DNA from: Eledone cirrhosa
Lineage: Eukaryota
Reading direction: 5' to 3'
Length of the DNA stretch: 64,000 bases
Assembly (NCBI GenBank): GCA_964016885.1
Contig: OZ024752.1
Location: forward strand, 26,784,001-26,848,000
This document shows positions 197 through 29,611 of the stretch, one piece after another. Within the stretch, counting starts at the first letter, position 1; each line of letters starts with the position of its first letter. The translations under genes and the position numbers were made by a program. A model generated the notes under the pieces. It searched no databases, was not told the origin of the DNA, and saw only the letters and a program-made list of their open reading frames with translations.

Positions 197-426
197 ATAT
201 ATATACATATATATATATACATATATGTATATATATATACATATGTATGTATATATATATATATATGTATATATATCTATGTATGTATATATATATATGT
301 ATATATATATACATATATGTATATATATATATGTATATACATATATGTATATATAAATACATATATATATATACATATATGTATATATATATACATATAT
401 ATAAATACATACATAGATATATTTAC

Positions 427-457
<31 letters not shown>

Positions 458-828: not shown

Positions 829-883
<55 letters not shown>

Positions 884-890
884 GTATATA
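79..890. repeat. (TA)n/(TACA) degenerate microsatellite
   Basis: Direct inspection. Confidence 0.98.
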
Positions 891-959
891 AATTACCCTA
901 ATGCTATCCCTAACAACCATGCATCTACACACCATATTAACCGGCAAGCAAACAGCCAG

Positions 960-2694: not shown

Positions 2695-3755
<1,061 letters not shown>

Positions 3756-6700
3756 TCATTATCTATAAAAGGCAGATTGTTGTTGTGTGTGTGCATGTTC
3801 CATGTTTATACATTTGCACAATTTCAAACCGATTCGACTCAACGTCTGTAAGAATGTTGTAAATTGTCTATCTTAGGTCAACGACTCTTTATTTATTTTA
3901 ATATCACCCACAATTACGGAAATAATCGATAAAACTAAATACATGGCGCTTTACCCCTCTAATACAATCTGAACCCTCTCTCTACTCCCCTTAAAAATCA
4001 AAAAAAAAGTTACACGCTGCAACCTTCTCTTATATACGGTTAAAACCCACTCCTTACTAATTTCCTTTAGAGAGAGAGAAAAAATAAAGGAGTGAGCCAG
4101 AGAGTGAGAGACAGAGACAAACGTTAAATGCATGACGCTTACATTTTATACCAAACTACAATTATTCAAAAGCCACAGATAAATTTATTCAACAACTAGA
4201 AAAATAGCGACAAATCTTTTTTTAAAACATCCATAATCCAACTCACACACAATTACATTTTGTGTATAACATATTTACACGTTTATTGAGTGTAAAAAAA
4301 AACACACGGATTTTTGGCCAAACAACTTCAAATTGCTGACAGAAGCGCGCTTTCAACAAACTGTGAGCTATTTATTTGCCGTTCGTTCTCCCATTTTTTC
4401 CCCTGCGGAACGCCGACAGTTTTCAGCCTTATACTTTCAAAGGCAATTTTGCTGTAGAAGTAACTTTCACCCTTTCTTTTTCACACAAAATGCCACCTAA
4501 AAAGAAAAGTCGCCTCGGTCGCCATACCGCGTCAGCGGCGGCTCAGAGGGCGATTACAGTAAACGAGTTTCCCGAAGAAACTGCTTTAAGACTTTCACAG
4601 AGCGCCTTACGTTCAGCGGAATGCAGAGCTGCTGAAAGTTTTCAACAACTCACCGCACGCCTAGCCAAGATGGCTTCATACGACGCCTCGAGATGTGCTG
4701 CGATGTGCTATTCAGAGCGGGCGATACCTCATTCCAAAAAACCGCTTCTACTGCTGCTTCCATGGCTTCAGAGGGCGCGGAACAAAGGTCGACTCGGCTG
4801 GCTAGAAACGCTGCTGCTACTGTGCTTCCAGGGCTTCAGAGGGCCCGCAAAAATGGTCGACTCGCCTGAATAGAAACGCTGCTGCTACTGCTGCTTCCAG
4901 GGCTTCAGAAGGCCCGGAACAAAGGGCGGCTCAACTGACTAGAAACGCTCCGGCTACTGCTGCTTCCAGGGCTTCGGAAGGTTTGGAACGGTTTGGAACT
5001 TGCTAGGAACGCTGCGGCTATGACTGCTTCCATGGCTTCTGAAGATGCAGACGGGCGCTCCATTAGGATTGCAAGGGTGGTTTCTGCTACTGCTGCGAGA
5101 GCTTCCCACGACCCACAGGAGCAACATTCTACGTTGGAGCGGAACAGTCGATGACGAGAAGCTGCTCGCGGTGTGACGAGCCCCAACAGCCTATACTGGA
5201 ACCTACGGGCTTTCAAGTATGAGCCCAACGTTAACTACTCGATGCGTGCCGACATAAATATAGGGGAAATGCGCTTCAATTGCAAATTCTGCAATGCTAA
5301 AAAGTGGGCTGGGGAGCCACCTGCAATGTGCTGCTTAAACGGTAAGGTCAGCTTGCCCCCTCTTGGGGAACCGCCAGAGCCTTTGAAGGAACTACTTACT
5401 AGTTCTACCTCAAGGTCATCCAAAATCCTTCAACTCATCAGGAAGTTCAATTGTGCGTTTCAAATGACTTCTTTCGGAGCCAACGTTGTCAGAGAAAGTG
5501 GTTGGATGCCTACTTTCAAGGTCCAGGGGCAGGTGTACCATCTTATTGGATCGCTCCAGCCACTACAAAATTGCAAGCCTTCGTTCCTTCAAATTTCTTC
5601 GTTCTTTCATTTCTAACTACAGTAGGCAAGTTGATGCGCGGTTCGGCGTTATTCCAACACCTGCAAACATTGACGCTGACACTTTTGAAAGCAACGTGCT
5701 GCTCGGTCTTCAAAACATGCTTCATGAGCACAACAGTTATATTCGCAGTTTCAAATACGCATTGGAAACAAACCCTTCACCAAACTTCACCATTGTCATC
5801 GATGCTGACAAAAGACCTTCTGGGGGAGCACGCACGCCGTTATAAGGCTCCTTCGTGCAATGAAGAGGCCGTAGTTATCCATGGTGAACAGCACAATAAG
5901 CGAGACGTAGTTCTTCAAAGCCGTGACAGTGGTCTTCGACGTATTAATGAGACACATCGTTCATACGACGTCCTGCAGTAACCCCTTCTTTTTGCATACG
6001 GAGAAGACGGGTACCATTTCGGCATTCCTCAGCGCAAACCAAACGAGCCCACTGCTGCGACATCTAAAACTGTTTAATGTATGGCTTTATACTCATACCG
6101 CTTCATGACGAGGTCTAACGATTTCAGCACCCTGCACAGGTCACGGGAACTGTTTCACCAGTTTGCAGTTGACATGGTTGCAAAGGTGGAGTCGGAGAGA
6201 CTGTGCTTCATAAAATTGAATCAGAAGAAGCAGCTCAGACTCCTACATCCATTTGCGTGGCGGCATCAGGAATGACACTGACCCCCGGAACATCGGCAAA
6301 ATGTCCATTCTCCCCTCAACCTATACGGAGGGGGGTGCATGCACGAGTGAACACAGGACGCTATGACGTTCGTTCGGCATTATGGGCGCCCCGATTTATT
6401 CATCACGTTTACGTGTAACCCCAAGTGGGTTGAGATTACGCGGGAACTTATCCCAGGGCAGCAGTACTGCCATCGGCATGATATTATTACCAGAGTTTTC
6501 AGGAAGAAGCTGGCTAAGCTAATTGATCTAATCAAAAAGGGAAGGTTTTCGGGCCTGTTAGGTGCCACATGTATACTGTTGAGTGGCAGAAGAGAGGGTT
6601 GCCACACGCGCACATTTTGGTTTGGTTGGTCACCAAAATAGACCCTACAGTTCTAGATGACGTCATCGCAGTGGAAATACCGGACCCCGTTGTTGACCGG

Positions 6701-9681
6701 CAGCTGTACGACATTGTGAAGGCACACATGGTGCACGGTCCGTGCGGTCCTAGTTTTCAAGAGTTCTCCTCATGCCACAAGGACCATGTGTTCACTAAAC
6801 GATACCCAAAGATGTTTGTTGAGGAGTCCCAAACCGGCGGCGACGGATACCCACTGTACAGACGAAGGCGGCCTAAGAACGGTGGATTCACTATGACGTT
6901 ACGGGGTCATCAAGTTGATAATAGGTGGGTGGTCCCGTACTGTCCATTTCTGATGAAAACTTTCAACGCTCATATAAATGTGAAGTTCTGTCATTCAGTG
7001 AAGTCGATAAAGTACATATGTAAATATGTTAACAAGGGTTCCGACGCTGCCATGTTCGGCCTTCAAAACTACAATAGCAGGGACGAGGTCTCGGAGTACT
7101 TGGAAGGTCGATATATCAGCAGTGGTGAAGCTTTTTTGCGGATATTCGGGATCCCACTTCACCAAAGGCACTCCGCCATCATACAACTAGAGGTTCATTT
7201 GGAAAACGGCCAGCGGACTTACTTTACTGAACAAACTGCTGCTCATTTGGCGGCCAATCCAAAAGAAACAATTTTGACTGTTTTTTTTACGCTTTGCCAA
7301 CTTGACACATTTGCAAAAACACTTTCCTATCTCAGGTCCCGTCCTACTACGTGTGGTCAAACAACACTTGGGTGCGTAGGAAGTCAGGTCAGGATGTTGA
7401 AGGACATCCTGGTGTCAAGTTTGACAGTTGTCTAGGAAGAGTGTACACTGTACCTCCTAATCAGCATGAGTCTTTTACCTGCGCCTTCTCCTCCATGAGG
7501 TTTTTGGCCCACAAAGCTTTCGAGACATAAGAACTGTTGACGGTGAATTATGTGATACTTTCCGGGAAGTCTGCTTTAGGCGTGGCCTTGTGGAGGATGA
7601 TTCACAATGGGGCGCCACTATGGCAGAGGGCGTTTTGTTGAAATCTCCTAAAAGATTAAGATCGCTTTTCGCTATTCTACTCCTATGGTGCGACTTGGGT
7701 GATCCGGCCTCTTTATCGCTTAGCTACAAAGATTACATGTCTGAAGATTTCCTGCGTCACGCTCAGTTGCTAAACCCATCGATGGAGGTCGGGTACAGGG
7801 ATCTCATTTAGAACAGGACGCTGCTTGAAATCGAAGATACTGTTCTCGATATGGGCGGTAGTGCGTTGGCGGTGTTTGGCCTACCTTCAACAAACCGGGA
7901 AGGCGCAAACACTCTGTCTTCGGATTTGCTGCGTGAGACATCTTATAATGTTGACGAGCTTGCCCAGTACATAGCGGAGAATGAGCCAAAGCTCCTTACA
8001 GAACAGAAATTCGCTTACAACTCCGTTGTTAATTCTGTCCGGGGCAAAGCTGGGGTTATTTCTTTCCTGGACGCTCCTGGGGGGACTGGGAAAACTTTTG
8101 TCCCCAAATTAATATTAGCTGAGATTAGGCGAACAGAAGGCATTGCCTTAGCTGTAGCATCATCTGGAATTTCGGCTACTTTGTTGCCGGGCGGCAGGAC
8201 AGCTCACTCCTATTTCAAGCTCCCGCTTGACTTAGCGAAGACTTAGACACCCACTTGCAACATCAGTAAGAGCTCCGATCAGGCAGAAGTGTTCAGACGA
8301 TGCAAGCTTATCGTTTGGGACGAATGCACGATGGTCCACAGAGGTGCTCTTGAGGCGCTAGATAGAACTCTGAGAGACATCAAAGACTCTACGGCACCCA
8401 TGGGAGGCATAACACTTCTTCTTTCAGGGGACTTCACGCAAACACTTCCTGTTATTCCCAAGGGGACTAGAGCTGATGCAGTACGTGTGTGTCTTAAGTC
8501 ATCCGCATTGTGGCTTCTGGTGAAGACTCTGAAACTTCACACTAACATGCGTGCTCATATGCGAGGTGATATCGCACCAGCAGCATTTTCTCACACCCTC
8601 CTTGCACTTGGCGAAGGCAAAACGCCCGGGGAGGAAAAGGGTAATATTGCCATCGACTCACTTTGTACCGTTGTTAGTACGCCTTCTGATCTCAGGGCTG
8701 CAGTGTTCCCAGATCTCCAAGTAAATTATCAGAATATGAATTGGCTTTCCCAAAGGGCTATTCAAATGCTAAAACTCATTCCTGGGGAAGGCTACGTATA
8801 TAAGTCTATCAATAGAGGACGTCATCAACTATCCAATAGAGGTACTAAATTCCTTTGGGCCCCCCGGATTACCCCCACATATTTTGAAACTTAAAGTTGG
8901 TGCCCCTGGGGCAAGGTTGTGCTCATACCGAGGATGCATCTTTTCCCATCAGGAGCAGACCTACCTTTCACATTTCGGAGGTCCCAGTTCCCGGCCAGGC
9001 CCTGCTTCGCAATGTCAATTAACAAAGCGCAGGGGCAAACACTGTCTGTCGCGGGAATACATTTGGGGGAGCCGTGTTTCTCTCATGGTCAGCTTTACGT
9101 TGGCTGCTCGCGTGCCAGCAGCAAGAGTGATGATTTCGCGTTCGTTCCGCAAGGAAAAACAAAAAAAATGACGAGATTTATATTTTTAGGCGGTTCCCTG
9201 CAATTACTTCACACTTCACCAACACCTGACCTCCGCTCAGCTCTAGTTCCCTCCTCCGTCGGCACAGCAGCAGGCTCATGTTCTACGTCCGACGTACATG
9301 ATGTACCAACCATACAATGACCCCTCTTCCTCTTTTTGGTTGTCATAATTCGACAATGTTTTCAGGCCCTATTTGCGGTTCCCTCATTTCACCCCCTCCC
9401 CCGTTAAAACATGTCATGCAGAACAACTCCATCGCAGCTCTGTTGTTCGGCTGGCACCCTCTACGCGCGTGTTGCGCAAGTACTGTGAAAAAATAAATTT
9501 CAACACTTCTTTGCACAGAGATAATATCAATAGGCGAAACTACAATTGTCACTGCTGGCGCAGCTCCTGCTTCGGCAGTCCAGGTCTGCATTACATTCAA
9601 ACAGTGCCTGGCAGACAAAAACGTGGTGCAACCTAACTTTGGTAACTTACTGACCCCGAACAACGCCGGGCTTTAATGCTA

Positions 9682-9682
<1 letters not shown>
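3756..9682 (+). mobile_element. Helitron, full length, Rep/Helicase ORF disrupted by stops and frameshifts
   Basis: 5' TC at 3756 or 3762 after an A; 3' CCCG-aacaacgc-CGGG hairpin then CTAG (9679-9682) followed by T; Rep motifs PDLFITFTCNPKW, VEWQKRGLPHAHIL, YICKYVNKG; PIF1-type helicase motifs DAPGGTGKT, IVWDE, SGDFTQTLPV, FAMSINKAQGQT. Confidence 0.95.
4730..5045 (+). repeat. ~66-70 bp imperfect tandem repeats in the 5' coding part of the Helitron
   Basis: Recurring tagaaacgctgctgctactgctgcttccagggcttc unit. Confidence 0.8.
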
Positions 9683-9719
<37 letters not shown>

Positions 9720-9788
9720 ATAATAATAAAATTGAAGACTAAAATCCAAAGCAGCGATTCTTTGCTTAAACTTTAATCTGTTATTTTA

Positions 9789-9850
<62 letters not shown>

Positions 9851-10192
9851 CGAAGGAAATGTGATAAGGAACCAGGTGGACCATAACGCACCAAAGTACT
9901 CAATACTTAGGGTAGTAGAGTGGGTAATAGGAACGAGTAGGACCCCGACGGCTGACCTCAAGCCGTCGGGGTCGAACTCGTTCCTATATATATATATTTA
10001 TTTATATATACATATATATATATATATAAATTAGAATTGGTGCTCTGAAATAGCGATATATATATATGAATGTATATATAGTGTATTTTGCAATACACTG
10101 TATGCTTAATTAAAAGCATTTTGAAGATCATACGCTATTGTTTTAAAGTAGTGACAATGTCACTTACTTAAATTTTTAGCAAACAGGGGAGA

Positions 10193-10241
10193 TAAGCTGA
10201 CAGAGCTCTGTTTCGTACTTGTTGCTACTTATCAAAGCTCA
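10193..10241 (-). ncRNA. Minimal type I hammerhead ribozyme, U3-A8 core variant
   Basis: Minus strand tgagct-TTGATAA-gtagcaacaagtac-GAAA-cagagctctg-TC-agctta; stem III is palindromic. Confidence 0.8.
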
Positions 10242-10509
10242 CTACTCTCCCTGTTGCTGAAAATTATGTGTGTTGGATTCTTATAGAATTCCAGTAATAA
10301 TCAGGAACTGATTATACAGAGCGGTCGCCGGTCCAGCAGAAATTGTATATTAGAATTGGTGCTCTGAAATAGCGATATATATATGAATGTATATATAGTG
10401 TATTTTGCAATACACTGTATGCTTAATTAAAAGCATTTTGAAGATCATACGCTATTGTTTTAAAGTAGTGATAATGTCACTTACTTGAATTTTCAGCAAA
10501 CAGGCGAGA

Positions 10510-10558
10510 TAAGCTGACAGAGCTCTGTTTCGTACTTGTTGGTACTTATCAAAGCTCA
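10510..10558 (-). ncRNA. Minimal type I hammerhead ribozyme, U3-A8 core variant
   Basis: As the previous copy, with a perfect gtac/gtac stem II. Confidence 0.85.
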
Positions 10559-10707
10559 CTACTCTCCTTGTTTGCTGAAAATTATGTGTGTTGGATTCTT
10601 ATAGAATTCCAGTAATAATCAGGAACTGATTATACAGAGCGGTCGCTGGTACAGCAGAAATTGAAAACTAGAATTGGTGTTCTGAAATAGTCCTGTTAAT
10701 GAAAATA

Positions 10708-10990
10708 ATTGTTTTTACTTTTGGCACATGGCCAGCAAATTACCAGTGTATTACTGGTACTTTATTTTATCGACCTCATAAGGATGAAAGTCAAAGTTAA
10801 TGAAAATAATTGTTTTTTACTTTAGGCACAAGGCCAGCAATTACCCAGTGCATTACTGGTACTTTATTTTATCGACCCCGTAAGGATGAAAGTCAAAGTC
10901 AACCTCGGCGGGATTTGAACTCAGATCGTAAAGGGACGTAACTATGCTGGAAAGCATGGCGTCCGACCCTCTACCGATACTGCAAATCCA
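10708..10990 (-). mobile_element. Truncated plus near-full tRNA-derived SINE in tandem
   Basis: B box gagttcaaatcc on the minus strand; aatgaaaataat present three times around the two copies. Confidence 0.85.
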
Positions 10991-11491
10991 ATGAAAATAA
11001 TGAACAGGAGACGGCTACTTTTAATATGTCCTGCTGGAAGGAGTGTTTGAGGACTGCCTTCACGGCCGTCTCAGGAATAAATGGGTGAAGAAGAAGATTC
11101 ACACACACACACAGGCATATATATATATATATATGCAGGATATCCGTAGATAAAACGCCAAGGAAAACATTGCTCAATCTATGGCAAGAGACCTTATTTA
11201 GTATAATTAAAATTTGCTACACTTAACATTTATGAAATTCGTACCATATATTTTAACATTGCGTATGTGTTACTTTACTATTTAATATTATGTACTAGTG
11301 GTACTAAATATTGAAATAGTATGCATATAATACCAATATATTTTGTTATATCTTACACCAAATATTCTAATATTGGATATACGACAACAAATATTTTAAC
11401 ATTCATTAAATACCACAATGTATTTTAATATTGGATAGATGATATTGTTCATAATGGTAAATAACTTACAGAATATTTACAGATGGGATAA

Positions 11492-11686
11492 CAGACCTGT
11501 CAACTCTCCCCGTCCAACTAGGAGATCTCCCACCCATTTGGGGGTGGGTGAGAGATTTCTTCTCTAGTGAAAATGAGTATAGCATTCATTATGAAAAATC
11601 TCCCCATTTTGCCCCATTTCTCCCCACTTTGCGGCACATTTTTTCATGGTACTCCCTGTTTGGGTTTTTAGAGATAGGCAGGTCTG
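11492..11686. mobile_element. MITE with CAGACCTG...CAGGTCTG termini and 6-bp TSD GGATAA
   Basis: Imperfect ~16 bp TIR; GGATAA at 11486-11491 and 11687-11692. Confidence 0.75.
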
Positions 11687-11804
11687 GGATAAGATTATAT
11701 TGTGTATGAATCTTTTGCAAAATATCAAACACTCTATAAAGCTGTGAAAGAACAATGCATTAAATTATATTTTGATAAATGAAGAAGAGATTTGAATCGC
11801 TTAC

Positions 11805-11909
11805 TTGCTAATTTATCCGTCAAAAGCTTGATTTTAGTTTGCTTTCTGCAATGATTATAATGTGTGAAGCACAAGCTAGACTGACAGCTTACTGGTTTTA
11901 TTATAATGG
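11805..11909 (-). CDS. 105-nt exon, probable start of ITIH C-terminal domain (AIIIKPVSCQSSLCFTHYNHCRKQTKIKLLTDKLA)
   Basis: Strong ttcttttttcttttag acceptor, gtaagc donor, phase 1/1; resembles the PHFII...(L/I)CF...IL.LV.D pattern that follows the vertebrate ITIH cleavage site. Confidence 0.75.
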
Positions 11910-14900
11910 CTAAAAGAAAAAAGAAATAAGTTCAAAGCATAGCAATTTTGTATTTATGAAAGAAATGAGTGAATGTGAGTGAATATGCTTGTGTTTGTAT
12001 AATAAATATATCACAGACACAAAGAAAAGCACATTGAAACATAGTTCTGAATGAAATATTAGATAAGACCTCTACCCCCCACCCACCACCAATAAACAAA
12101 TTTGATAAATAGAATATATTCCATGATGAATGGGGAACTCAGGACACTTCATCAAGTAGCTTTATCATTGATTTCCTAGACACAAATTTCTATAAAGAGT
12201 TTTGAATGATTAATTATTTAAAAATCGGTGAACTAATTATCCAAATATACAAGTAATTCAAATAATTAAACATTAATTTATAAACATTAAAGCATTTAGA
12301 AAGAAATCATGTTAATGTATTGCGAATTATGCTACTGAAATATCGTGGTGATTACTATATAGCTATATACTGCATCTCTTTATGGAGATATAGATTGGAT
12401 CAAACTGATTTATATATATTTTTTAATACTTCGAAATCAATATTGGGCAACAGAGTAACAATTGTAAACCAGCCAACAAATTTAAGTGAGACCTGATCAG
12501 TAGACAACATAGCTGCACAGATCAAACAACTTATTGATTTAATGATAAGATGTACAAAGTATATCTTCATATTTTGGTCACATTTGCCTCTTGACAAAAA
12601 TAGTGCAGATAATATCGCGCAATATTGCCGCTATCTCATACTAATGATTATCTCCGCTTTTGGCACAAGGGCTGCAATTATCCCAGTGCATTACTAGTGC
12701 TTTATTTTATCGACCCCGAAAGGATGAAAGGCAAAGCTAACCTCGGCGGGATTTGAATTCAGAGTGTAACAAACCGTAACAGAATGCCGCAAAGCATTTT
12801 GTCCGGCATTCTACTGAATCCACCAATCCACTGCCCTTACAATCTGAAAAAATGAAAGTTTCTAGTATTGTGTTTTTATTTTCGGATTTTTTTCAAATTT
12901 GTTATTCATTGTTTGCATTGATTAAATTATTCTAGAAAAGAAAAGATATATTATACATTCAAGAAAAGATGTAATGATTAATAGACAAAATAGAAATGTT
13001 GTTTCCTTACCAGGGATTTTTTCAACAGTTGGAATAATATTGGTGGTTGTTTCATTTAATGATATTCCAGTTCCTCTGGCTGATACAGATATGTTTAAAT
13101 CCGAAGGAATATGAATAAAATAAAAGTATAAAACAATATTTAAAATATGCTCAGCATAAAAGATAAAATGAAAATCTGCTTCGATTTCGGGATAAAATAT
13201 ATTATAAATCACAACATATGTGGACAGTATGAACAAATAAATATACTTGAAAATGAAGACACTTATTCCTTTACATCAAATATTTCAGTTTGAATTTGTT
13301 TACTTTATTTACATGACAACATTCAGGGTGCAAATATTTTCAGCCCAAATACTTTATTCTGAATGTAAAATTTAAAAATTACAAGAATATATTATATATA
13401 TTGATTTCTACAGCTGGATGCCCTTCCTAACACCAACTTCATTTACAGTGAGTACTAGGTACTTTTTTTTACCGTGGCGCCTACACGACCACTTTATAGT
13501 GTGGACTGGGTGATTTTTGTTGTGACACCTACACAATCACTTTATGGGGAGGCATACAGTCTATATATATATATTTATATATTTATATATACTTACGGTA
13601 AATATTGATGCAATTCAATTCAAGCACTCTACATACATTTTCCACATAGGAATGACAGAGTATATTTAGAATAAGGAAATGTGAAGTAGTTTCAAATTTA
13701 GGCAGAATCATGGTCACTGTCATCATTGAAATATGTATCACAACATTATCAATAAAGGACTTTAATATCTGAACCTACTTCGCATTTTCTTATTCTATAT
13801 ATATACATATATCATCATCATCATTATTTTACGTCCGCTTTTCCCTGCTTGCAAGGGTGGGACGTGTTCTATTCAGCACAGCATCTCTCCAGTTGTCATG
13901 GTCCTTTGTCATCTCCTCTGTGAGCTTCAGCAATCTGAGGTCTGCTCTCACCACCTCCGCCCATGTTTTTCGTGGTCTTCTCCTACTGCGCTGCCTCCTA
14001 CTGAGATTTCTTGGTACTTCTTTACCCAGCGGTCATCCTACATGCGCATCACATTTCCATACCATCGCAGTTTTCTCTCCTGCACACTACAATTTATCCC
14101 TCTTATACACAGTTTCTATTTCAACTCATCTATGCTTGTTCGTTCACGTACATTGGCATTGCATATCCAACGGAGCATGCTTGGTTCATTTCTCTTCAGC
14201 CGTCGTATATCCTCTACAGTTGCTGCCCATGTCACACTACCATGCAGCATCGCGCATCTCACACAGGTATCATATAATCGGCCTTTCGTATGCATGGAGA
14301 AATCCTTCTTTGTCAACAGAGGAAGAAGCTCCCTAAACTTCTTCCAACCCGTCCTTAATCTAGATACTATGGCCTTGGAACACCCCCTCCCATGCTAATC
14401 TGATCGCCTAGGAACCGGAAGTTATCAACCACTTCCATAGAACCCACCTGCATTTGAAAAGTGTGTCTATCACTGCGACATCTACTGTCAAATTTCCCTG
14501 TGCATCTACTGAATTTGTAGTTTTACCTACCTGTTAGTTTGCCTGCTATCCCACTACATCTCTTGTGTACCCAGGATCTGCATTGTGTTCATTTTATAGA
14601 ATTTATGCCAGCCCCTTTTCTACATACCGAACAAAGCCATTTCCCTGATGGAATCAGAGTTTTGTGCTCTGTTCTACTTATCAACACTTTTGTCTTAGCT
14701 AGGTTCACTCTCAATCCTATTGATTCCAAATACTGTGTCCATAGCCAGAATTTATTCTCTAGCTCCTCTACTGATTCTACTATAAGAACCAAATCGTCAG
14801 TATAGAGAAGTTCCCATGGGCAGCTAGTCTGAATCTCCTCTGTTATGGCTTGGAGGACTATAATGAAGAAGAAGGGGCTGAGGGCCGAACCCTGATGTAC

Positions 14901-15264
14901 TCCAACTTGTATCTGGAATTCCCTACTAAATTCCATTCCTACTCCCACTTTACTGACAGTACCCCTGTACATAGCTTGCATTGTCCTCACACGTCATTCC
15001 TTTACATCTAGTTGCTTTAGGGACCACCAGATGACAGATTGGGGTACCCTATCAAAGGCCTTCTCTAGGTCAACAAAAGCTAAGTATAGTGGCTTATTTT
15101 TCTGTAAGAACCTCTCTTGTAGTTGTCTCACTAAGAAGAGGGCATCTGTTGTACATTTTCCAGGCACAAAACCAAACAGCATCTTATCTAATTTGATGCT
15201 TTCTCTAATTAGTTGCACTAATATTCTTTCTGCCACTTTCATATATATATATATATATGAATAC

Positions 15265-15349
<85 letters not shown>

Positions 15350-18300
15350 CTCAGCAGAACACGGAACCTTTCTATGGATTTCACTGGCTTACTCGCCATC
15401 AGATTACATTGACTTTTATCTATGGCACAGTCCCTACCACCAAAGGTAGACAACACAGAAAACGTATATATATATATATCATCATCATCTTCATCATCAT
15501 TGTTTAACATCCATCTTCCACGCTAGCCTGGGTTAGATGGTCTTGTTCCGTTTGAAGTGGGAATGGTGGGGAGAACATGTCTCACTCACACAGAAGCGTC
15601 TCTGGCAGGTTTTTTACTGCTAGATGTCCTCCCTAACATCAACCCCGTTTACAGTGTATACTGAGAGCCTTTTCACCGTGTCTCCTACACAGCCACCTTA
15701 CAGTGTGAACTGTTGTGTCATCGACACAAGGGACGATACGGGAGAGGGAGGAAGGGGTAGGATGCGGGGTGGGGATACATTGGGTTAAGAGGTGCCTACT
15801 GACTGTAGTTTTGTATGCAATTGCAGTCGGGTCTTCTGTACAACTGCATGGCGCTAAAGGTCTCGATCTAGTGTCATTGTCTTAGAGACAATATGTATAT
15901 ATATATAACTGTTTCTACTTTTGGCACAAGGGCAGCAATTAACCAGTGCATTACTGGTACTTTTTTTTATCGACCCGGAAAGGATGAAAGGCAAAGCTAA
16001 CCTCGGCGGGATTTGAACTCAGAGTGTAACAAACCGTAACAGAATGCCGCAAAGCATTTTGTCCGGCATTCTACTGAATCCACCAATCCGAAAAATCCTT
16101 ACAATCTGAAAAAAATGAAAGTTTCTGGTATTGTGTTTTTATTTTCGGATTTTTTCAAATTTATTATTCATTGTTTGCATTGATTAAATTATTCTGGAAA
16201 AGAAAAGATATATTATACATTCAAGAAAAGATGTAATAATTAATAGACAAAATAGAAATGTTGATTCCTTACCAGGGATTTTTTCAACAGTTGGAATAAT
16301 ATTGGTGGTTGTTTCATTTAATGATATTCCAGTTCCTCTGGCTGATACAAATATGTTTAAATCCGAAGGAATATGAATAAAATAAAAGTATAAAACAATA
16401 TATAAAATATGCTCAGCATAAAAGATAAAATGAAAATCTGCTTCGATTTCGGGATAAAATATATTATAAATCACGACTTATGTGCACAGTATGAACAAAT
16501 ACATATACTTGAAAATGAAGACACTTAATCCTTTACATCAAATATTTCAGTTTGAATTTGTTTACTTTATTTACATGAAAACATTCAGGGTGCAAATATT
16601 TACAGCCCAAATACTTTATTCTCAAAGTAAAATTTAAAAATTACAAGAATATATTATATTATATAATATACCATGTATACGCACATATATATCATCATCA
16701 TATCATCACCGTTTTACATCCATTCTTCCACGCTAGCATGGGTTAGATGGGTTGTCCTGTTATGGGCAATGCCAGGTCAGGTGACCATGTCTTGCTAATA
16801 CGGAACTGATTTTGGCTTGATTTCTACAGCTGGATACCCTTCCTAACACCAACTTCATTTACAGTGAGTACTAGATACTTTTTATACCGTGGCGCCTACA
16901 CGACCACTTTACAGTGTGGACTGGGTGATTTTTGTTGTGACACCTACACAATCACTTTACGGGGAGGCATACAGTCTATATATATATTTATGTATACTTA
17001 CGGTAAACATTGATGCTTATTCAATTCAAGCACTCTACATACATTTTCCACATAGGAATGACAGAGTATATTTAGAATAAGGAAATGTGAAGTAGTTTCA
17101 AATGTTAAAGTCCTTTATTGATACGGCTGTGATAGATATTTCAATGACGACAGTTGCCACATGATTCCGCCTTATGAGATCATGGGACTTGTTAGGCAGA
17201 ATCGTAGTCACTGTCAGCATTGAAATATGTATCACAGCATTATCAATAAAGGACTTTAATATCTGAACCTACTTCGCATTTTCTTAATCTATATATATAT
17301 ATATATCATCATCATCATTACTTTACGTCCGCTTTTCCCTGCTTGCAAGGGTGGGATGTGTTCTATTCAGCACAGCATCTCTCCACTTGTCATGGTCCTT
17401 TGTCATCTCCTCTGTGAGCTTCAGCAATCTGAGGTCTGCTCTCACCTCTTCCGCCCATGTTTTTCGTTGTCTTCTACTGCGTATTCCTTCTACTGGGATT
17501 TATTGGTACTTCTTTACCCAGCGGTCATCCTACATGCGCATCACATTTCCATACCATCGCAGTCTTCTCTCCTGCACACTACAATTTATCCCTCTTATAC
17601 ACAGTTTCTATTTCAACTCATCTATGCTTGTTCGTTCACGCACATTTGCATTGCATATCCAACGGAGCATGCTTGGATCATTTCTCTTCAGCCGTCGTAT
17701 ATCCTCTACAGTTGCTGCCCATGTCACACTACCATGCAGCATCGCGCATCTCACACAGGTATCATATAATCGGCCTTTCGTATGCATGGAGAAACTCTTC
17801 TTTGTGAACAGAGGAAGAAGCTCCCTAAACTTCTTCCAACCCGTCCTTAATCTAGATACTACGGCCTTGGAACACCCCCCTCCCATGCTAATCTAATCAC
17901 CTAGGTACCGGAAGTTATCAACCACTTCCATAGAACCCACCTGCATTTGAAAAATGTGTCTATCACTGCGACATCTACTGTCAAATTTCCCTGTGCATCT
18001 ACTGAATTTGTAGTTTTTCCTACCTGTTAGTTTGCCTGCTATCCCACTACATCTCTTGTGTACCCAGGATCTGCTTTGTGTTCATTTTATAGAATTTATG
18101 CCAGCTCCTTTTCTACATACCGAACAAAGCCATTTCCCTGATGGAATCAGAGTTTTGTGTTCTGTTCTACTTATCAACACTTTTGTCTTAGCTAGGTTCA
18201 CTCTCAATCCTATTGATTCCAACTGCTGTGTCCATAGCCAGAATTTATTCTCTAGCTCCTCTACTGATTCTACTATAAGAAACAAATCTTCAGCATAGAG

Positions 18301-18757
18301 AAGTTCCCATGGGCAGCTAGTCTTAAACTCCTCTGTTATGGCTTGGAGGACTATAATGAAGAAGAAGGGGCTGAGGGCTGAACCCTGATGTACTCCTACT
18401 TGTATCTGGAATTCCCTACTAAATTCCATTCCTACTCCCACTTTACTGACAGTACCCCTGTACATAGCTTGCATTGTCCTCACACGCCATTCCTTTACAC
18501 CTAGTTTCTTTAGGGACCACCAGATGACAGATTGGGGTACCCTATCAAAGGCCTTCTCTAGGTCAACAAAAGCTAAGTATAGTAGCTTATTTTTCTGTAA
18601 GAACCTCTCTTGTAGTTGTCTCACTAAGAAGAGGGCATCTGTTGTACATTTTCCAGGCACAAAACCAAACAGCATCTTATCTAATTTGACCTTTTCTCTA
18701 ATTAGTTGCACTAATATTCTTTGGGCCACTTTCATATATATATATATATATGAATAC

Positions 18758-18795
<38 letters not shown>

Positions 18796-21700
18796 AACTC
18801 AGCAGAACACGGAACCTTTCTATGGATTTCACTGGCTTACTCGCCATCAGATTACATTGACTTTTATCTATGGCACAGTCCCTACCACCAAAGGTAGACA
18901 ACACAGAAAAAGTATATATATATATCATCATCATCTTCATCATCATTGTTTAACATCCATCTTCCACGCTAGCTTGGGTTAGATGGTCTTGTTCCGTTTG
19001 AAGTGGGAATGGTGGGGAGAACATGTCTCACTCACACAGAAGCGTCTCTGGCAGGTTTTTTTACTGCTAGATGTCCTCCCTAACATCAACCCCGTTTACA
19101 GTGTATACTGAGAGCCTTTTCACCGTGTCTCCTACACAGCCACCTTACAGTGTGAACTGTTGTGTCATCGACACAAGGGACGATACGGGAGAGGGAGGAA
19201 GGGGTAGGATGCGGGGTGGGGATACATTGGGTTAAGAGGTGCCTACTGACTGTAGTTTTGTATGCAATTGCAGTCGGGTCTTCTGTACAACTGCATGGCG
19301 CTAAAGGTCTCGATCTAGTGTCATTGTCTTAGAGACAATATGTATATATATATAACTGTTTCTACATTTGGCACAAGGGCAGCAATTAACCAGTGCATTA
19401 CTGGTACTTTTTTTTATCGACCCGGAAAGGATGAAAGGCAAAGCTAACCTCGGCGGGATTTGAACTCAGAGTGTAACAAACCGTAACAGAATGCCGCAAA
19501 GCATTTTGTCCGGCATTCTACTGAATCCACCAATCCGAAAAATCCTTACAATCTGAAAAAAATGAAAGTTTCTGGTATTGTGTTTTTATTTTCGGATTTT
19601 TTCAAATTTATTATTCATTGTTTGCATTGATTAAATTATTCTGGAAAAGAAAAGATATATTATACATTCAAGAAAAGATGTAATAATTAATAGACAAAAT
19701 AGAAACGTTGTTTCCTTACCAGGGATTTTTTCAACAGTTGGAATAATATTGGTGGTTGTTTCATTTAATGATATTCCAGTTCCTCTGGCTGATACAAATA
19801 TGTTTAAATCCGAAGGAATATGAATAAAATAAAAGTATAAAACAATATATAAAATATGCTCAGCATAAAAGATAAAATGAAAATCTGCTTCGATTTTGGG
19901 ATAAAATATATTATAAATCACAACTTATGTGGACAGTATGAACAAATAAATATACTTGAAAATGAAGACACTTAATCCCTTACATCAAATATTTCAGTTT
20001 GAATTTGTTTACTTTATTTACATGAAAACATTCAGGGTGCAAATATTTTCAGCCCAAATACTTTATTCTCAATGTAAAATTTAAAAATTACAAGAATATA
20101 TTATATTATATAATTGTTTATACTTTAGGCACAAGGCCAGCAATTACCCAGTGCATTACTGGTACTTTATTTTATCGACCCCGTAAGGATGAAAGGCAAA
20201 GTCAACCTCGGCGGGATTTGAACTCAGACCGTAAAGGGACGTAACTATGCTGGAAAGCATGGCGTCCGACCCTCTACCGATACTGCCAATCCACCGCCCT
20301 ATTATATATTATATTATATAATATACCATGTATACGCACATATATATCATCATCATATCATCACCGTTTTACATCCATTCTTCCACGCTAGCATGGGTTA
20401 GATGGGTTGTCCTGTTATGGGCAATGCCAGGTCAGGTGACCATGTCTTGGTAATACGGAACTGATTTTGGCTTGATTTCTACAGCTGGATGCCCTTCCTA
20501 ACACCAACTTCATTTACAGTGAGTCCTAGATACTTTTTTTATACCGTGGCGCCTACACGACCACTTTACAGTGTGGACTGGGTGATTTTTGTTGTGACAC
20601 CAATACAATCACTTTAGGGGAGGCATACAGTCTATATATATATTTATATATACTTACGGTAAACATTGATGCTTATTCAATTCAAGCACTCTACATACAT
20701 TTTCCACATAGGAATGACAGAGTATATTTAGAATAAGGAAATGTGAAGTAGTTTCAAATGTTAAAGTCCTTTATTGATACGGCTGTGATAGATATTTCAA
20801 TGACGACAGTTGCCACATGATTCCGCCTTATGAGATCATGGGACTTGTTAGGCAGAATCGTAGTCACTGTCAGCATTGAAATATGTATCACAGCATTATC
20901 AATAAAGGACTTTAATATCTGAACCTACTTCGCATTTTCTTAATCTATATATATATATATATCATCATCATCATTACTTTACGTCCGCTTTTCCCTGCTT
21001 GCAAGGGTGGGATGTGTTCTATTCAGCACAGCATCTCTCCACTTGTCATGGTCCTTTGTCATCTCCTCTGTGAGCTTCAGCAATCTGAGGTCTGCTCTCA
21101 CCTCTTCCGCCCATGTTTTTCGTTGTCTTCTACTGCGTATTCCTTCTACTGGGATTTCTTGGTACTTCTTTACCCAGCGGTCATCCTACATGCGCATCAC
21201 ATTTCCATACCATCGCAGTCTTCTCTCCTGCACACTACAATTTATCCCTCTTATACACAGTTTCTATTTCAACTCATCTATGCTTGTTCGTTCACGCACA
21301 TTGGCATTGCATATGGATCATTTCTCTTCAGCTGTCGTATATCCTCTACAGTTGCTGCCCATGTCACACTACCATGCAGCATCGCGCATCTCACACAGGT
21401 ATCATATAATCGGCCTTTCGTATGCATGGAGAAACCCTTCTTTGTGAACAGAGGAAGAAGCTCCCTAAACTTCTTCCAACCCGTCCTTAATCTAGATACT
21501 ATGGCCTTGGAACACCCCCCTCCCATGCTAATCTAATCACCTAGGTACCGGAAGTTATCAACCACTTCCATAGAACACACCTGCATTTGAAAAATATGTC
21601 TATCACTGCGACATCTACTGTCAAATTTCCCTGTGCATCTACTGAATTTGTAGTTTTTCCTACCTGTTAGTTTGCCTGCTATCCCACTACATCTCTTGTG

Positions 21701-24700
21701 TACCCAGGATCTGCTTTGTGTTCATTTTATAGAATTTATGCCAGCTCCTTTTCTACATACCGAACAAAGCCATTTCCCTGATGGAATCAGAGTTTTGTGT
21801 TCTGTTCTACTTATCAACACTTTTGTCTTAGCTAGGTTCACTCTCAATCCTATTGATTCCAACTGCTGTGTCCATAGCCAGAATTTATTCTCTAGCTCCT
21901 CTACTGATTCTACTATAAGAACCAAATCTTCAGCATAGAGAAGTTCCCATGGGCAGCTAGTCATAAACTCCTCTGTTATGGCTTGGAGGACTATAATGAA
22001 GAAGAAGGGGCTGAGGGCCGAACCCTGATGTACTCCAACTTGTATCTGGAATTCCCTACTAAATTCCATTCCTACTCCCACTTTACTGACAGTACCCCTG
22101 TACATAGCTTGCATTGTCCTCACACGCCATTCCTTTACACCTAGTTCCTTTAGGGACCACCAGATGACAGATTGGGGTACCCTATCAAAGGCCTTCTCTA
22201 GGTCAACAAAAGCTAAGTATAGTGGCTTATTTTTCTGTAAGAACCTCTCTTGTAGTTGTCTCACTAAGAAGAGGGCATCTGTTGTACATTTTCCAGGCAC
22301 AAAACCAAACAGCATCTTATCTAATTTGATCTTTTCTCTAATTAGTTGCACTAATATTCTTTGTGCCACTTTCATATATATATATATATATGAATACCTA
22401 ATATATATATATATATATATGTTTTAACTCAGCAGAACACGGAACCTTTCTATGGATTTCACTGGCTTACTCGCCATCAGATTACATTGACTTTTATCTA
22501 TGGCACAGTCCCTACCACCAAAGGTAGACAACACAGAAAAAGTATATATATATATATATATCATCATCATCTTCATCATCATTGTTTAACATCCATCTTC
22601 CACGCTAGCTTGGGTTAGATGGTCTTGTTCCGTTTGAAGTGGGAATGGTGGGGAGAACATGTCTCACTCACACAGAAGCGTCTCTGGCAGGTTTTTTTAC
22701 TGCTAGATGTCCTCCCTAACATCAACCCCGTTTACAGTGTATACTGAGAGCCTTTTCACCTTGTCTCCTACACAACCACCTTACAGTGTGAACTGTTGTG
22801 TCATCGACACAAGGGACGATACGGGAGAGGGAGGAAGGGGTAGGATGCGGGGTGGGGATACATTGGGTTAAGAGGTGCCTACTGACTGTAGTTTTGTATG
22901 CAATTGCAGTCGGGTCTTCTGTACAACTGCATGGCGCTAAAGGTCTCGATCTAGTGTCATTGTCTTAGAGACAATATGTATATATATATAACTGTTTCTA
23001 CTTTTGGCACAAGGGCAGCAATTAACCAGTGCATTACTGGTACTTTTTTTTATCGACCCGGAAAGGATGAAAGGCAAAGCTAACCTCGGTGGGATTTGAA
23101 CTCAGAGTGTAACAAACCGTAACAGAATGCCGCAAAGCATTTTGTCCGGCATTCTACTGAATCCACCAATCCGAAAAATCCTTACAATCTGAAAAAAATG
23201 AAAGTTTCTGGTATTGTGTTTTTATTTTCGGATTTTTTCAAATTTATTATTCATTGTTTGCATTGATTAAATTATTCTGGAAAAGAAAAGATATATTATA
23301 CATTCAAGAAAAGATGTAATAATTAATAGACAAAATAGAAATGTTGTTTCCTTACCAGGGATTTTTTCAACAGTTGGAATAATATTGGTGGTTGTTTCAT
23401 TTAATGATATTCCAGTTCCTCTGGCTGATATAAATATGTTTAAATCCGAAGGAATATGAATAAAATAAAAGTATAAAACAATATATAAAATATGCTCAGC
23501 ATAAAAGATAAAATGAAAATCTGCTTCGATTTCGGGATAAAATATATTATAAATCACAACTTATGTAGGACAGTATGAACAAATACATATACTTGAAAAT
23601 GAAGACACTTAATCCTTTACATCAAATATTTCAGTTTGAATTTGTTTACTTTATTTACATGAAAACATTCAGGGTGCAAATATTTTCAGCCCAAATACTT
23701 TATTCTCAAAGTAAAATTTAAAAATTACAAGAATATATTATATTATATAATATACACATGTATATATATATCATCATCATATCATCACCGTTTTACATCC
23801 ATTCTTCCACGCTAGCATGGGTTAGATGAGTTGTCCTGTTATGGGCAATGCCAGGTCAGGTGACCATGTCTTGCTAATACAGAACTGATTTTGGCTTGAT
23901 TTCTACAGCTGGATGCCCTTCCTAACACCAACTTCATTTACAGTGAGTACTAGGTACTTTTTTTTACCCTGGCGCCTACACGACCACTTTACAGTGTGGA
24001 CTGGGTGATTTTTGTTGCGACACCTACACAATCACTTTACGGGGAGGCATACAGTCTATACATATATATTTGTATATACTTACGGTAAACATTGATGCAA
24101 TTCAATCAAGCACTCTACATACATTTTCCACATAGGAATGACAGAGTATATTTAGAAAAAGGAAATGTGAAGTAGTTTCAAATGTTAAAGTCCTTTATTG
24201 ATACGGCTGTGATAGATATTTCAATGACGACAGTTGCCACATGATTCCGCCTTATGAGATCATGGGACTTGTTAGTTAGAATTGGGGTTCACTGTCATCA
24301 TTGAAATATGTATCACAACATTATCAATAAAGGACTTTAATACCTGAACCTACTTCGCTTTTTCTTAATATATATATCTACATATATCATCATCATTATT
24401 TTACGTCCGATTGTCCCTGCTTGCAAGGGTGGGATGTGTTCTATTCAGCACAGCATCTCTCCACTTGTCATGGTCCTTTGTCATCTCCTCTGTGAGCTTC
24501 AGCAATCTGAGGTCTGCTCTCACCTCTTCCGCCCATGTTTTTCGTTGTCTTCTACTGCGTATTCCTTCTACTGGGATTTCTTGGTACTTCTTTACCCAGC
24601 GGTCATCCTACATGCGCATCACATTTCCATACCATCGCAGTCTTCTCTCCTGCACACTACAATTTATCCCTCTTATACACAGTTTCTATTTCAACTCATC

Positions 24701-25790
24701 TATGCTTGTTCGTTCACGCACATTGGCATTGCATATCCAACGGAGCATGCTTGGTTCATTTCGCTTCAGCCGTCGTATATCCTCTACAGTTGCTGCCCAT
24801 GTCACACTACCATGCAGCATCGCGCATCTCACACAGGTATCATATAATCGGCCTTTCGTATGCATGGAGAAACCCTTCTTTGTGAACAGAGGAAGAAGCT
24901 CCCTAACCTTCTTCCAACCCTTCCTTAATCTAGATACTATGGCCTTGGAACACCCCCCTCCCATGCTAATCTGATCACCTAGGAACCGGAAGTTATCAAC
25001 CACTTCCATAGAACCCACCTGCATTTGAAAAGTGTGTCTATCACTGCGACATCTACTGTCAAATTTCCCTGTGCATCTACTGAATTTGTAGTTTGCCTGC
25101 AATCCCACTACATCTCTTGTGTACCCAGGATCTGCTTTGTGTTCATTTTATAGAATTTATGCCAGCTCCTTTTCTACATACCGAACAAAGCCATTCCCCT
25201 GATGGAATCAGAGTTTTGTGCTCTGTTCTACTTATCAACACTTTTGTCTTTGCTAGGTTCACTCTCAATCCTATTGATTCCAACTGCTGTGTCCATAGCC
25301 AGAATTTATTCTCTAGCTCCTCTACTGATTCTACTATAAGAACCAAATCGCCAGCATAGAGAAGTTCCCATGGGCAGCTAGTCTTAAACTCCTCTGTTAA
25401 TGCTTGGAGGACTATAATGAAGAAGAAGGGGCTGAGGGCCGAACCCTGATGTACTCCTACTTGTATCTGGAATTCCCTACTAAATTCCATTTCTACTCCC
25501 ACTTTACTGACAGTACCCCTGTACATAGCTTGCATTGTCCTCACACGCCATTACTTTACACCTAGTTGCTTTTGGGGACCACCAGATGACAGATTGGGGT
25601 ACCCTATCAAAGGCCTTCTCTAGGTCAACAAAAGCTAAGTATAGTGGCTTATTTTTCTGTAAGAACCTCTCTTGTAGTTGTCTCACTAAGAAGAGGGCAT
25701 CTGTTGTACATTTTCCAAGCACAAAACCAAACTGCATCTTATCTAATTTGATCCTTTCTCTAATCAGTTGCACTAATATTCTTTCTGCCA

Positions 25791-25854
<64 letters not shown>

Positions 25855-28640
25855 GTATTAACTCAGCAGAACACGGAACCTTTCTATGGATTTCACTGGT
25901 TTACTCGCCATCAGATTACATTGACTTTCATCTACGGCACAGTCCCTACCACCAAAGGTAGACCACACAGAAAAAGTATATATATATATATATATATATC
26001 ATCATCATCTTCATCATTATTGTTTAACATCAATCTTCCACGCTAGCCTGGGTTAGATGGTCTTGTTCCGTTTGATGTGGGAATGGTGGGGAGAACATGT
26101 CTCACTCACACAGAAGCGTCTCTGGCAGGTGTTTTACTTCTAGATGTCCTCCCTAACATCAACCCCGTTTACAGTGTATACTGGGAGCCTTTTCACCGTG
26201 TCTCCTACACGACCACCTTACAGTGTGAACTGTTGTCTCATCGATACAGGGGACGATACGGGAGAGAGAGGAAGGGGTAGGATGCGGGTGGGTATACATT
26301 GGGTTAAGAGGTACCTACTGACTGTAGTTTTGTATGCAATGGCAGTCGGGTCTTCTGTACAACTGCATGGTGCCAAATGTCTCGATCTAGTGTCATTGTC
26401 TTAGAGACAATATGTATATATATATAATTGTTTCTACTTTTGGCACAAGGCCAGCAATTATCAAGTGCATTACTGGTACTTTATTTTATCGAACCCGTAA
26501 TCAAATTTCACGTAGTTTAGGAGTGCAGACTTATGTTTTGAATGAAAAAAATACTTTGGGGATGAAAAGAGGTCAAGCCAGTGAAAGGTACACGGAAATT
26601 TGATGTTATTAAAGTATAATGTTAAAAACGAAGGAAAATAAAATTTTAGGGTAAGGTTACTAGTGAGAAATACCAATCTTATTTAAACCACAAGGAATCT
26701 AGATCTATAACAAGAAATTAAATTAATTGATAGGGATAAATTTATATTAATTCATATGAATGTGATAAATAAGAATTAGATGTTATTAAAAACGAAGAGT
26801 GTTGTTATAACGAAGGAAAGTAACATTTTGGGATAGGTGTAGTAGTGAGAAATACCAATCTTATATAAACTACAAGGAATCTAGATTGATAACAGGAAAT
26901 TAAATTAATTTATAGGTATAGTTTTAGGTATTAATTTTAGGAAAAGAGAGCTGTAAGAGCGAAATAAAATTATAAAGTTCTCTGTAGTAAAGTACTAATT
27001 ATAGGTTAACTAAATTAAAACAAACAATTATAATAATATGTAAAATATAAGTGTTATATTAATTAGGTTTATAATATTTGAAGGTTCTGCTAATTCTATG
27101 ATTGAAAGATATAATTAATTCCTGTCGCTTATTTAATAGGATATCCTTAGATTTCATGATTTTAAAAAGTTCCTGGGAGCATAATCTACACTCGTATCTG
27201 TTATTTTAAGGACCACCAGATGACAGATCGGGGTACCCTATCAAAGGCCTTCTCTAGGTCAACAAAGGCTAAGTATAGTAGCTTATTTATCTGTAAGAAC
27301 CTCTCTTGCAATTGTCTCACCAAGAAGAGGGCATCTGTTGTACTCTTCCCAGGCACAAAACCAAATTGCATCTCATCTAGTTTGACCCTTTCTCTAATTA
27401 GTTGTGCTAATATCCTTTCTGCCACTTTCATAGCCTGATCCATCAGTTTTATACCCCAATAATTGCTCCTCTCCAGAGCATCCCCTTTACCTTTGTAGCA
27501 ATTTATGAGAATACTGCTGCACCAGTCTTTGGGTATGACACCACCATATATAGCCTGATTGATGATGCGTGCAACCAGTTTAGTGCCTACGTCCCCTGAT
27601 GCCTTCAGCACCTCAGCAACTATTCCCGATGGTCCAGCAGCCTTACCACTTTTCATTTCCTTAAACGCCTCTTGGACCCTATATTCGTCAATCTCAATAG
27701 CTGGTCCCTCTGTCGGATCTACTGAGGGTAATTTCTCTCTCTCCCATTCGTTCTCCACATTCATCAGTCTCTCATAATTACATTTCCAGGCCTCCTTTTT
27801 CTGATCATTCGCTACACTAAGTACAACGGCATCGTTCCGGACACATTTATCTCCAACAACATCCTGATTTGCATTGACACACTGCCTTGCAATGTGAAAC
27901 ACAGCACGCCTCTGATCTTCCCATCGCAGAACATTGGCAAACCTCCTACTCTCAGCCTCCCTGCGTGCTAAGTACACCTGACGTCTAGCTTCTCTGTTAG
28001 CGGCTGTATATTCTTCCCTACTCCCACCCTTTTCCAAGCCTTCCATGCTAGTCTTTTGTCTCTAATGGCCTTTACTGTGCTGTTCCACCACCAGGTCACT
28101 CTCTGTCTGGTTGGAGCTCAGTAGCCTGCAGTAAGTTGTCACGTAAGAAATTCCAGTTATTATCTATGTCATACGTCTCTAAATCGTCTTCTTTTTCGTC
28201 ATACACATCTTGAAGTGCTTTCCTAAATTTGTATTTTAGTGAAAGGTCTTTTAGCTTCCAGACCTTTCTTCTCCACACCTTCCTGTATGTCTCATTCCAT
28301 CTCTTGCTTACTGAGATATCACTAACGACTAACCTATGCTGTGGGGTACATTCTTCCCCAGGGTATGCCTTGGTATTAAACACCATCTGCCTGTCCCGCT
28401 GCCTAACTAGTAAGAAGTCAATCAATTTGTAGGTTATTAGGTGGTTGACAGGTTTCTGGAAGTTTGTGTTGCAATAGTCAGTGTACCTGCATCACAAAAT
28501 TCAAGAAGTTTCACTCCTTCATTTCTTGAGTCGTAACCGTGCCCACCATGTACACAAGTGTAACCATCCTGCAGCTATCCAACATGACCATTGAAGTCCC
28601 CTGCTAGCATAACGATGTCTCCGTCCTCTGTCATTGTGGT

Positions 28641-28678
<38 letters not shown>

Positions 28679-29611
28679 TTAATATGGAAATGGTTTCTAC
28701 AGGACTAGAACTATTTTATTCAAAGAAAATCATCAGGCTTTCCTGGTGAATTCTTTCGAATGAAACATTGTATATACTCTACTATGTATTGAGAACCTTA
28801 GTTACTATGGTTACCCCTGATTGAATCCGACACACACACACACATATATATATATATCATATATTTACACACATATATATTTACACATATCTCCTTATAA
28901 TATATAACCACCAATTTCTCTGTCTGTCTGTCCGACAGTGGAAACACGTGCGCGCGTGGTTGCTATCTCTCTCTCTCTCTCCAGCTATCCCTCTCTTTTA
29001 GTCTGTCTGTTTCTCTCACTCTCACTCTTTCTCTTTGTAACACACTAACATTCCTCCCCTCTATCGCTGTGACGAATGGGGAGATGGAGGAGGAGGAGGT
29101 GGAGGAGGAGGAGGAGGAGGAGAGAGTCAGTTTGTCACTTCACCTCTGCCTTTCTTTCTCTCCCCTCTCACTCCCTCATTACGTACAGACATTAGGGCAG
29201 TGGATTGGCAGAATCTGTAGAGAGTCGGACACCATGCTTCATAGCATGGAGTTACGTCCCTTTACGGTCTGAGTTCAAATACCGCCGAGGTTAACTTTGC
29301 CTTTCATCCTCACGGGGTCCATAAAATAAAGTACCAGTAATGTACTGGGTATTTGCTGGCCTTGTGCCAAAAGTAGAAACAATTATTAGAAACATTGCTT
29401 CATTTCTACATATCTAAGCATTAGTAAAATAACTAATAATTTCAAAAGTAATTTTTCAATTCCAATTGTTATGAAGAGCAAAACATTAATAATAATTTTG
29501 TTCTAAGAAATATATATACATTTCTGTGTGTGTGTAATATATATATATATATACACACAGAAATATATATATATATACACTCAGAAATATATATACATTT
29601 CTGTGTGTGTA

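Follow-up and report, generated by a model that had tools for sequence, protein, structure and literature searches.

Four identical copies of a linker exon, likely made by recombination between short interspersed elements, in an ITIH-like gene of the octopod Eledone cirrhosa

Results

The 64,000-nt stretch of Eledone cirrhosa DNA analyzed here (assembly GCA_964016885.1, contig OZ024752.1, positions 26,784,001 to 26,848,000; hereafter the window, numbered from its first letter) carries part of a gene for an ITIH-like protein, in which a 69-nt exon of the linker (or stalk) lies in four identical copies within a tandem array. The gene was modelled as 15 minus-strand exons running from 57317 to 11805, with canonical splice sites and a 743-aa partial frame containing no stops (Table 1). 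A VIT domain (PF08487; E 1e-7, 32.5 bits vs. a cut-off of 26.5) was found on exon 57162–57317 and a VWA domain (PF00092) on both VWA exons, and the model contains the motifs DISKS, GGTNI, and LTDG, with the DxSxS motif intact. We take these three motifs to be parts of the MIDAS (metal ion-dependent adhesion site) of the VWA domain. The closest proteins, at 49–62% identity over the model, come from Octopus and Argonauta and are named ITIH4-like; in a 15-row tree of molluscan or unnamed proteins only, the window protein grouped with those of Octopus and Argonauta in one clade (95/96), without a resolved ortholog. The stalk, which separates the VIT–VWA core from the C-terminal domain, is made up of exons that are all of phase 1/1 (one of 75 nt, two of 27 nt, and four of 69 nt). 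The initial annotation, which had placed the 69-nt exon in the stalk between the VWA and C-terminal domains of an ITIH-like gene, is borne out.

The four copies of this exon are 100% identical over 69 nt (4/4), and each is bounded by the same acceptor (...tatcag) and donor (GTAAGG), confirming at the same coordinates the earlier claim of a real, splice-competent exon with AG/GT sites. Each copy is translated as RGTGISLNETTTNIIPTVEKIP, with one NET sequon and five Thr among 23 residues, so that the glycosylation sequon of the initial annotation stands, while the richness in Thr that it ascribed to the stalk is modest. When 11910–43808 was searched for phase-1 exons that keep the frame, with the plus strand as control, the four copies and the two 27-nt microexons were the top six of 14 minus-strand candidates and scored above all 10 plus-strand control candidates. 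No fifth copy was found within the 64-kb window.

The array that holds the copies measures 13.8 kb, with spacings of 3636, 3447, and 3262 nt between successive exon copies, and is wider than the span of 13011–23424 originally assigned to it, although the exon coordinates hold. Among its four units (U1 to U4), 143 of the 2888 unmasked, ungapped alignment columns are variable, and pairwise divergence amounts to 1.0% for U2–U3, 2.6–2.8% for four pairs, and 3.6% for U1–U4; unit flanks and transposable element (TE) parts do carry substitutions and indels around an unchanged exon, as had been noticed. The lack of variable sites in the 69 nt gave a Fisher p of 0.029 vs. the whole unit and of 0.067 vs. 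the non-TE flanks (20/486 variable). The exon sits within an 83-nt invariant run of the unit alignment, and there are six invariant runs of at least 69 nt in total, five of them in TE sequence and the longest (101 nt) in a dead long interspersed element (LINE). Tests for selection on the exon were not significant, with 0.7–0.9 synonymous changes expected (P(0) 0.41–0.48) and 2.1–2.5 non-synonymous ones (P(0) 0.07–0.12). Because of these p-values and the five equally invariant TE runs, the identity of the exon is weakly unusual (p 0.03–0.07) and suggestive at best, and the original caution that identity over 69 nt is not proof of selection was well placed.

The short interspersed elements (SINEs) at the two edges of the array share one direction, and each of the three unit junctions carries a hybrid SINE whose 5′ part corresponds to the downstream-edge SINE and whose tail runs on into the flank of the upstream-edge SINE. 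Since derived changes are common to all three junction SINEs, these descend from one event. Moreover, the inner units U2 and U3 are mosaics of the outer units U1 and U4. Of the 104 sites discriminating U1 from U4, the first 22 (5′ end) are U4-like in U2 (21/22) and U3 (22/22), and the last 19 (3′ end) are U1-like (15/19 and 17/19, respectively), with extra switches between the ends. A runs test counted 33 runs in the painted U2 and 31 in U3, where about 52 would be expected (2 and 0 of 20,000 shuffles, respectively); four of the discriminating sites are adjacent and stem from a single event. The LINE fragment present in every unit differs by 10.4–11.1% from an independent copy at 53.7–55.1 kb vs. 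1.1–3.4% among units, and is therefore older than the duplication; a reverse transcriptase domain was detected in a related LINE fragment at 27204–28061.

Non-allelic recombination of the Alu–Alu type is a form of repeat-mediated tandem exon duplication, and the array resembles it in having same-direction SINEs at both edges, a hybrid SINE at each junction, and inner copies that are mosaics of the outer ones. It differs in its octopod SINE family, its four copies, and its in-frame position in a tolerant linker. Hybrid-SINE junctions and mosaic middle units point to unequal crossing-over in a two-unit array, and the array likely originated by SINE–SINE unequal crossing-over followed by re-expansion. 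As read from the sequence, a single crossover between two same-direction SINEs would have given two units, and further unequal crossovers between diverged units would then have given the mosaic middle units, U2/U3 last. Haplotypes or reads placed in tandem during assembly could in principle mimic such an array, since the 1.0% difference between U2 and U3 is within the two-allele range. However, the outer units differ by 3.6%, indels are unit-specific, one SINE insertion has its target-site duplication, the window is free of N, and the hybrid junctions and mosaic painting are products expected of recombination. We therefore regard an assembly artefact as very improbable, and it could affect at most the copy count (three vs. 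four).

Two further features of the units were observed. In the head of the three junction SINEs (23172–23185 and its U2 and U3 equivalents), a short replacement resembles inverted nearby sequence and is possibly a template switch. In addition, the 230-nt palindromic element of each unit, which resembles a miniature inverted-repeat transposable element (MITE), folds into a long hairpin (half deleted in U4) that is a possible RNA-editing substrate.

Fourteen homologous stalks, several in orthologous pairs, were compared with that of the window protein. In all 14 the stalk ends with a Pro before the C-terminal domain, as in the 69-nt exon, and in-silico skipping of all four copies removes this Pro. 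The 69-nt exon is for this reason the ancestral last stalk exon, with at least one copy likely used. The stalk of the window protein would be 82 aa long with one copy and 151 aa with four, and since homologous stalks range from 58 to 167 aa and contain repeated 5-mers in 6/14 cases, a 151-aa stalk with repeats lies within the family range.

In two O. bimaculoides paralogs, in-frame stalk segments of 5–11 aa are all that distinguishes the annotated isoforms. Eight paralog isoforms, all of them predicted annotation models, were compared, i.e., P0039, P0005, P0040, P0038, and P0042 (5/6 members of one cluster) and P0044, P0007, and P0043 (3/4 of another), with short members left out. The homologous last stalk segment occurs once in 8/8, and the variable pieces are microexon-sized segments before it, pointing to combinatorial microexon splicing across the cephalopod family. 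Between the O. sinensis and O. vulgaris orthologs, a short repeated stalk motif differs in number and order. The variable stalk length proposed in the initial annotation thus has precedent in the family. In stalk position, end motif, and repeated or variable stalks, the cephalopod ITIH4-like paralogs (Octopus, Argonauta, Sepia) are like the window protein; unlike the window gene, none of the 14 stalks, compared as proteins only, has the last segment whole four times. A literature search, with subscription journals outside its coverage, found no paper on stalk variation in cephalopod ITIH proteins. Ink proteomics of O. vulgaris reported ITIH-like proteins, and one tabulated peptide matches the stalk end of paralog P0002 (PMC10142993), indicating that the family, though not this gene specifically, is made as protein. 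The homolog P0063 is probably derived from a spliced transcript, because its 907 aa are encoded on a 2986-nt Logan contig, and it carries degenerate Arg-rich stalk repeats of ~10 aa together.

Several other peculiarities were seen among the homologs. The stalk of P0054/P0063, one homolog, holds about eight degenerate ~10-aa repeats with many paired basic residues, resembling a panel of protease sites. The VIT region is duplicated in P0009 and P0008, P0047 (2709 aa) consists of three fused ITIH-like units, and several paralogs share the same longest contig, which suggests a tandem gene cluster.

The remainder of the window is rich in other repeats. Near-perfect inverted repeats in stalk introns (33011–33988, 42689–43263, and 37963–38392, with arms of 224, 223, and 97 nt, respectively, and 98–99.6% identity) are probably young DNA transposons. 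The first introns (52574–61929) contain several LINE copies, nested and broken and lying in either direction, and a second small tandem duplication with a unit of about 320 nt (95% identical) lies at 10027–10690, its repeat also occurring at 42.6–43.3 kb. Downstream of the last exon found, at about 4300–9320 on the plus strand, lies a broken Helitron-like element with what we take to be Rep and PIF1-helicase-like motifs. Finally, a stop-to-stop frame of 84 aa inside a stalk intron (39340–39594, minus strand), with a strong hydrophobic stretch and without start codon, had no Pfam match above cut-off and is perhaps a remnant of another gene.

Table 1. Positions of the modelled exons, the array units, and the repeats in and around the array
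Feature	Position in window	Strand	Basis
Seven core exons, VIT + VWA	57160–57317, 55738–55848, 55188–55438, 50843–51003, 48569–48857, 46637–47313, 43809–43881	minus	
75-nt stalk exon of phase 1/1 (prediction with a lower donor score)	41947–42021	minus	
27-nt phase-1/1 stalk microexon, predicted	40350–40376	minus	
27-nt phase-1/1 stalk microexon, predicted	39229–39255	minus	
69-nt stalk exon copy 1	23356–23424	minus	identity, splice sites, model, exon scan
69-nt stalk exon copy 2	19720–19788	minus	identity, splice sites, model, exon scan
69-nt stalk exon copy 3	16273–16341	minus	identity, splice sites, model, exon scan
69-nt stalk exon copy 4	13011–13079	minus	identity, splice sites, model, exon scan
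First exon of C-terminal domain	11805–11909	minus	tblastn matches from 7 homologs, E 5e-7 to 8e-3
Entire array, made up of four 3.26–3.64 kb units	about 12640–26500	minus	
Unit U1	22980–26415	minus	
Unit U2	19344–22979	minus	
Unit U3	15897–19343	minus	
Unit U4	12640–15896	minus	
5′-truncated SINE, upstream array edge, inferred recombination partner	26424–26500	minus	
Full SINE, downstream array edge, inferred recombination partner	12657–12837	minus	
Hybrid SINE, junction U1/U2	22988–23172	minus	
Hybrid SINE, junction U2/U3	19352–19536	minus	
Hybrid SINE, junction U3/U4	15905–16089	minus	
Young SINE, U2 only, target-site duplication at flanks	20110–20301	minus	
Dead 5′-truncated LINE fragment, present in every unit (U1 coordinates)	24400–25790	minus	
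Palindromic MITE-like element, one per unit	24147–24377, 20723–20953, 17067–17297; partly deleted in U4		
Antisense SINE in intron upstream of array	29193–29386	plus	complementarity to unit SINEs

Discussion

On balance, and with confidence only a little above even, we read the locus as the last linker exon in four identical copies, likely made by SINE crossover and then re-expanded; by default all four are likely spliced in, and the linker would grow from 82 to 151 residues. Default inclusion of all four copies is the best guess because the splice signals are identical, the introns between them measure 3193–3567 nt, and the joins are in frame; the splicing machinery would thus face no forced choice, and partial skipping of copies would keep the frame. 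With each extra copy the linker would gain an N-glycan sequon and an Arg-Gly bond. If human ITIH4 is taken as an analog, this linker would be unstructured, bait-like, and protease-susceptible and would put up with changes in length, so that the duplication may be tolerated, perhaps mildly conserved, rather than serve as a dedicated switch.

Exon duplications in tandem have been associated with mutually exclusive choice (PMC9013439), and BgTEP2 has 12 mutually exclusive tandem bait exons over 30 kb (PMC7016707). If only one copy were likewise used per mRNA, whether by mutual exclusion or because the copies are functionally redundant, the protein would be unchanged and the array would be raw material for later divergence. 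We hold this to be improbable, since introns of this length and in-frame joins offer no evident steric or decay-based exclusion, no Rfam element was found in 11700–27000 (0 matches), and generic inverted SINE and MITE pairings were seen instead of a dedicated docking–selector pair. Moreover, the copies are identical, and not the diverged alternatives of a mutually exclusive cluster of the Dscam/TEP2 type.

Graded inclusion, an idea of the initial annotation to which a mechanism is added here and in which 0–4 copies per mRNA would result from skipping, is the main possible rival to default inclusion, although we still deem it rather unlikely. It would fit the phase 1/1 of all stalk exons and the stalk-segment differences between annotated paralog isoforms, and might operate through pairing of the antisense SINE upstream of the array with the sense SINE after each copy. 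This antisense SINE is 80–81% complementary to the SINEs that follow the copies, or 79% in the case of the last copy, and 91% complementary to the U2-only SINE, with predicted duplexes of –239 to –253 and –330 kcal/mol, respectively. However, the same antisense SINE pairs equally (–296 kcal/mol) with an upstream SINE that is transcribed first, the SINE is common in the window (20 matches, four antisense), and the homologous last segment was never skipped in the eight paralog isoforms compared. Identical copies could, in addition, hardly be regulated singly through exon sequence. Pairing of MITE arms across units was also considered and rejected, as a local hairpin (–95 to –113 kcal/mol) would likely form first. 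Identical direct copies supply no base-pairing for back-splicing. The earlier suggestion that identical exons favour back-splicing was accordingly dropped, the copies being direct repeats; only the upstream antisense SINE could give such pairing.

A number of observations weigh against default inclusion of all four copies in a working gene. The pyrimidine tract of the 69-nt acceptors is modest (10/17), the paralog annotation models include stalk segments alternatively, which makes cassette behaviour plausible here, and the upstream antisense SINE could loop out one to four copies. The gene is also partial here, its first exon and most of its C-terminal domain not being found in the window: a scan of 57318–64000 yielded no signal-peptide exon, and tblastn across the window with the C-terminal parts of five homologs brought up no further C-terminal exon (E 0.11 at best). 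The Pfam domain ITI_HC_C (PF06668) had no match in 5/5 paralogs, the 34-aa window exon, P0053, or P0063, and protein searches returned no transcript-derived protein of this gene (best identity 62%). The C-terminal domain aligned weakly with the start of that of frog ITIH3 (hhalign E 0.16) and had a phmmer match at E 5.6e-3; a model of a paralog's domain reached a predicted local distance difference test score (pLDDT) of 52, with mucin D domains as best Foldseek rows (E 0.018; none at 0.001). A search of sequencing runs found the VWA exon in three runs of one study, none listed as RNA.

These gaps bear on whether the array is a neutral structural variant in a truncated or unexpressed gene. The region 1–11800, in which no further C-terminal exon was found, holds the Helitron-like element, and the invariance of the exon is statistically weak. 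On the other hand, all 15 exons of the model can be connected at canonical splice sites with no stop arising, the DxSxS motif is intact, and introns here reach 15.8 kb, so that the next exon may lie past the window. We give a neutral variant about as little credence as single use of the copies, if not slightly less.

Among known systems, human LPA KIV-2 resembles the array in its multi-kb tandem units with near-identical short coding exons (98–100%), intronic LINE pieces, and unit subtypes (PMC7613587). It differs in repeating a folded two-exon domain at about 5.55 kb per unit and with about 40 alleles (PMC7613587), whereas here a single 23-aa linker exon occurs in four copies in a single assembly. 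Functionally, cleavage of human ITIH4 takes place in a species-variable, protease-susceptible (proline-rich) region (residues 633–713) that acts as bait, after which the cleaved protein traps the protease through the MIDAS of its VWA domain (PMC7793589). The window protein shares with ITIH4 a VIT and a VWA domain with MIDAS, followed by a variable low-complexity segment (about residues 600–700) and then a C-terminal domain that lacks an Asp-Pro-His-Phe motif at its start. Conversely, the C-terminal domain of the cephalopod proteins searched is unrecognized by Pfam, and the likeness is one of position and variability, known from sequence. That the stalk may be a bait region is thus something we infer by analogy only. 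TEP/A2M bait regions (BgTEP2, BgA2M, Drosophila TEP2, and CfTEP) likewise employ tandem exons for a hypervariable, protease-sensitive segment (PMC7016707), but their exons are diverged and largely mutually exclusive and belong to a thioester protein, whereas the window copies are identical and lie in an unrelated protein family.

In a bolder and unlikely scenario, the cephalopod ITIH4-like cluster would encode protease traps whose bait linker, built of phase-1 microexons, is diversified by combinatorial splicing and SINE-driven exon copying, in parallel to TEP/A2M. The antisense SINE would then serve as docking site and the unit SINEs as selectors, giving a ladder of 0–4 glycosylated, Arg-Gly-bearing repeats.

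The exon repeat is a familiar kind of exon duplication, and its use in mRNA a prediction. Such repeats are probably under-counted, because identical copies collapse in short-read data. In this octopod locus, a clean and young case of coding-exon copying by SINEs, the junctions and the order of events are still legible. It also brings into view a cluster of ITIH-like genes in cephalopods with a linker varied by splicing and repeats. If that linker is a bait region, the cluster would allow a direct test of ITIH4-type protease trapping and bait diversification outside vertebrates.

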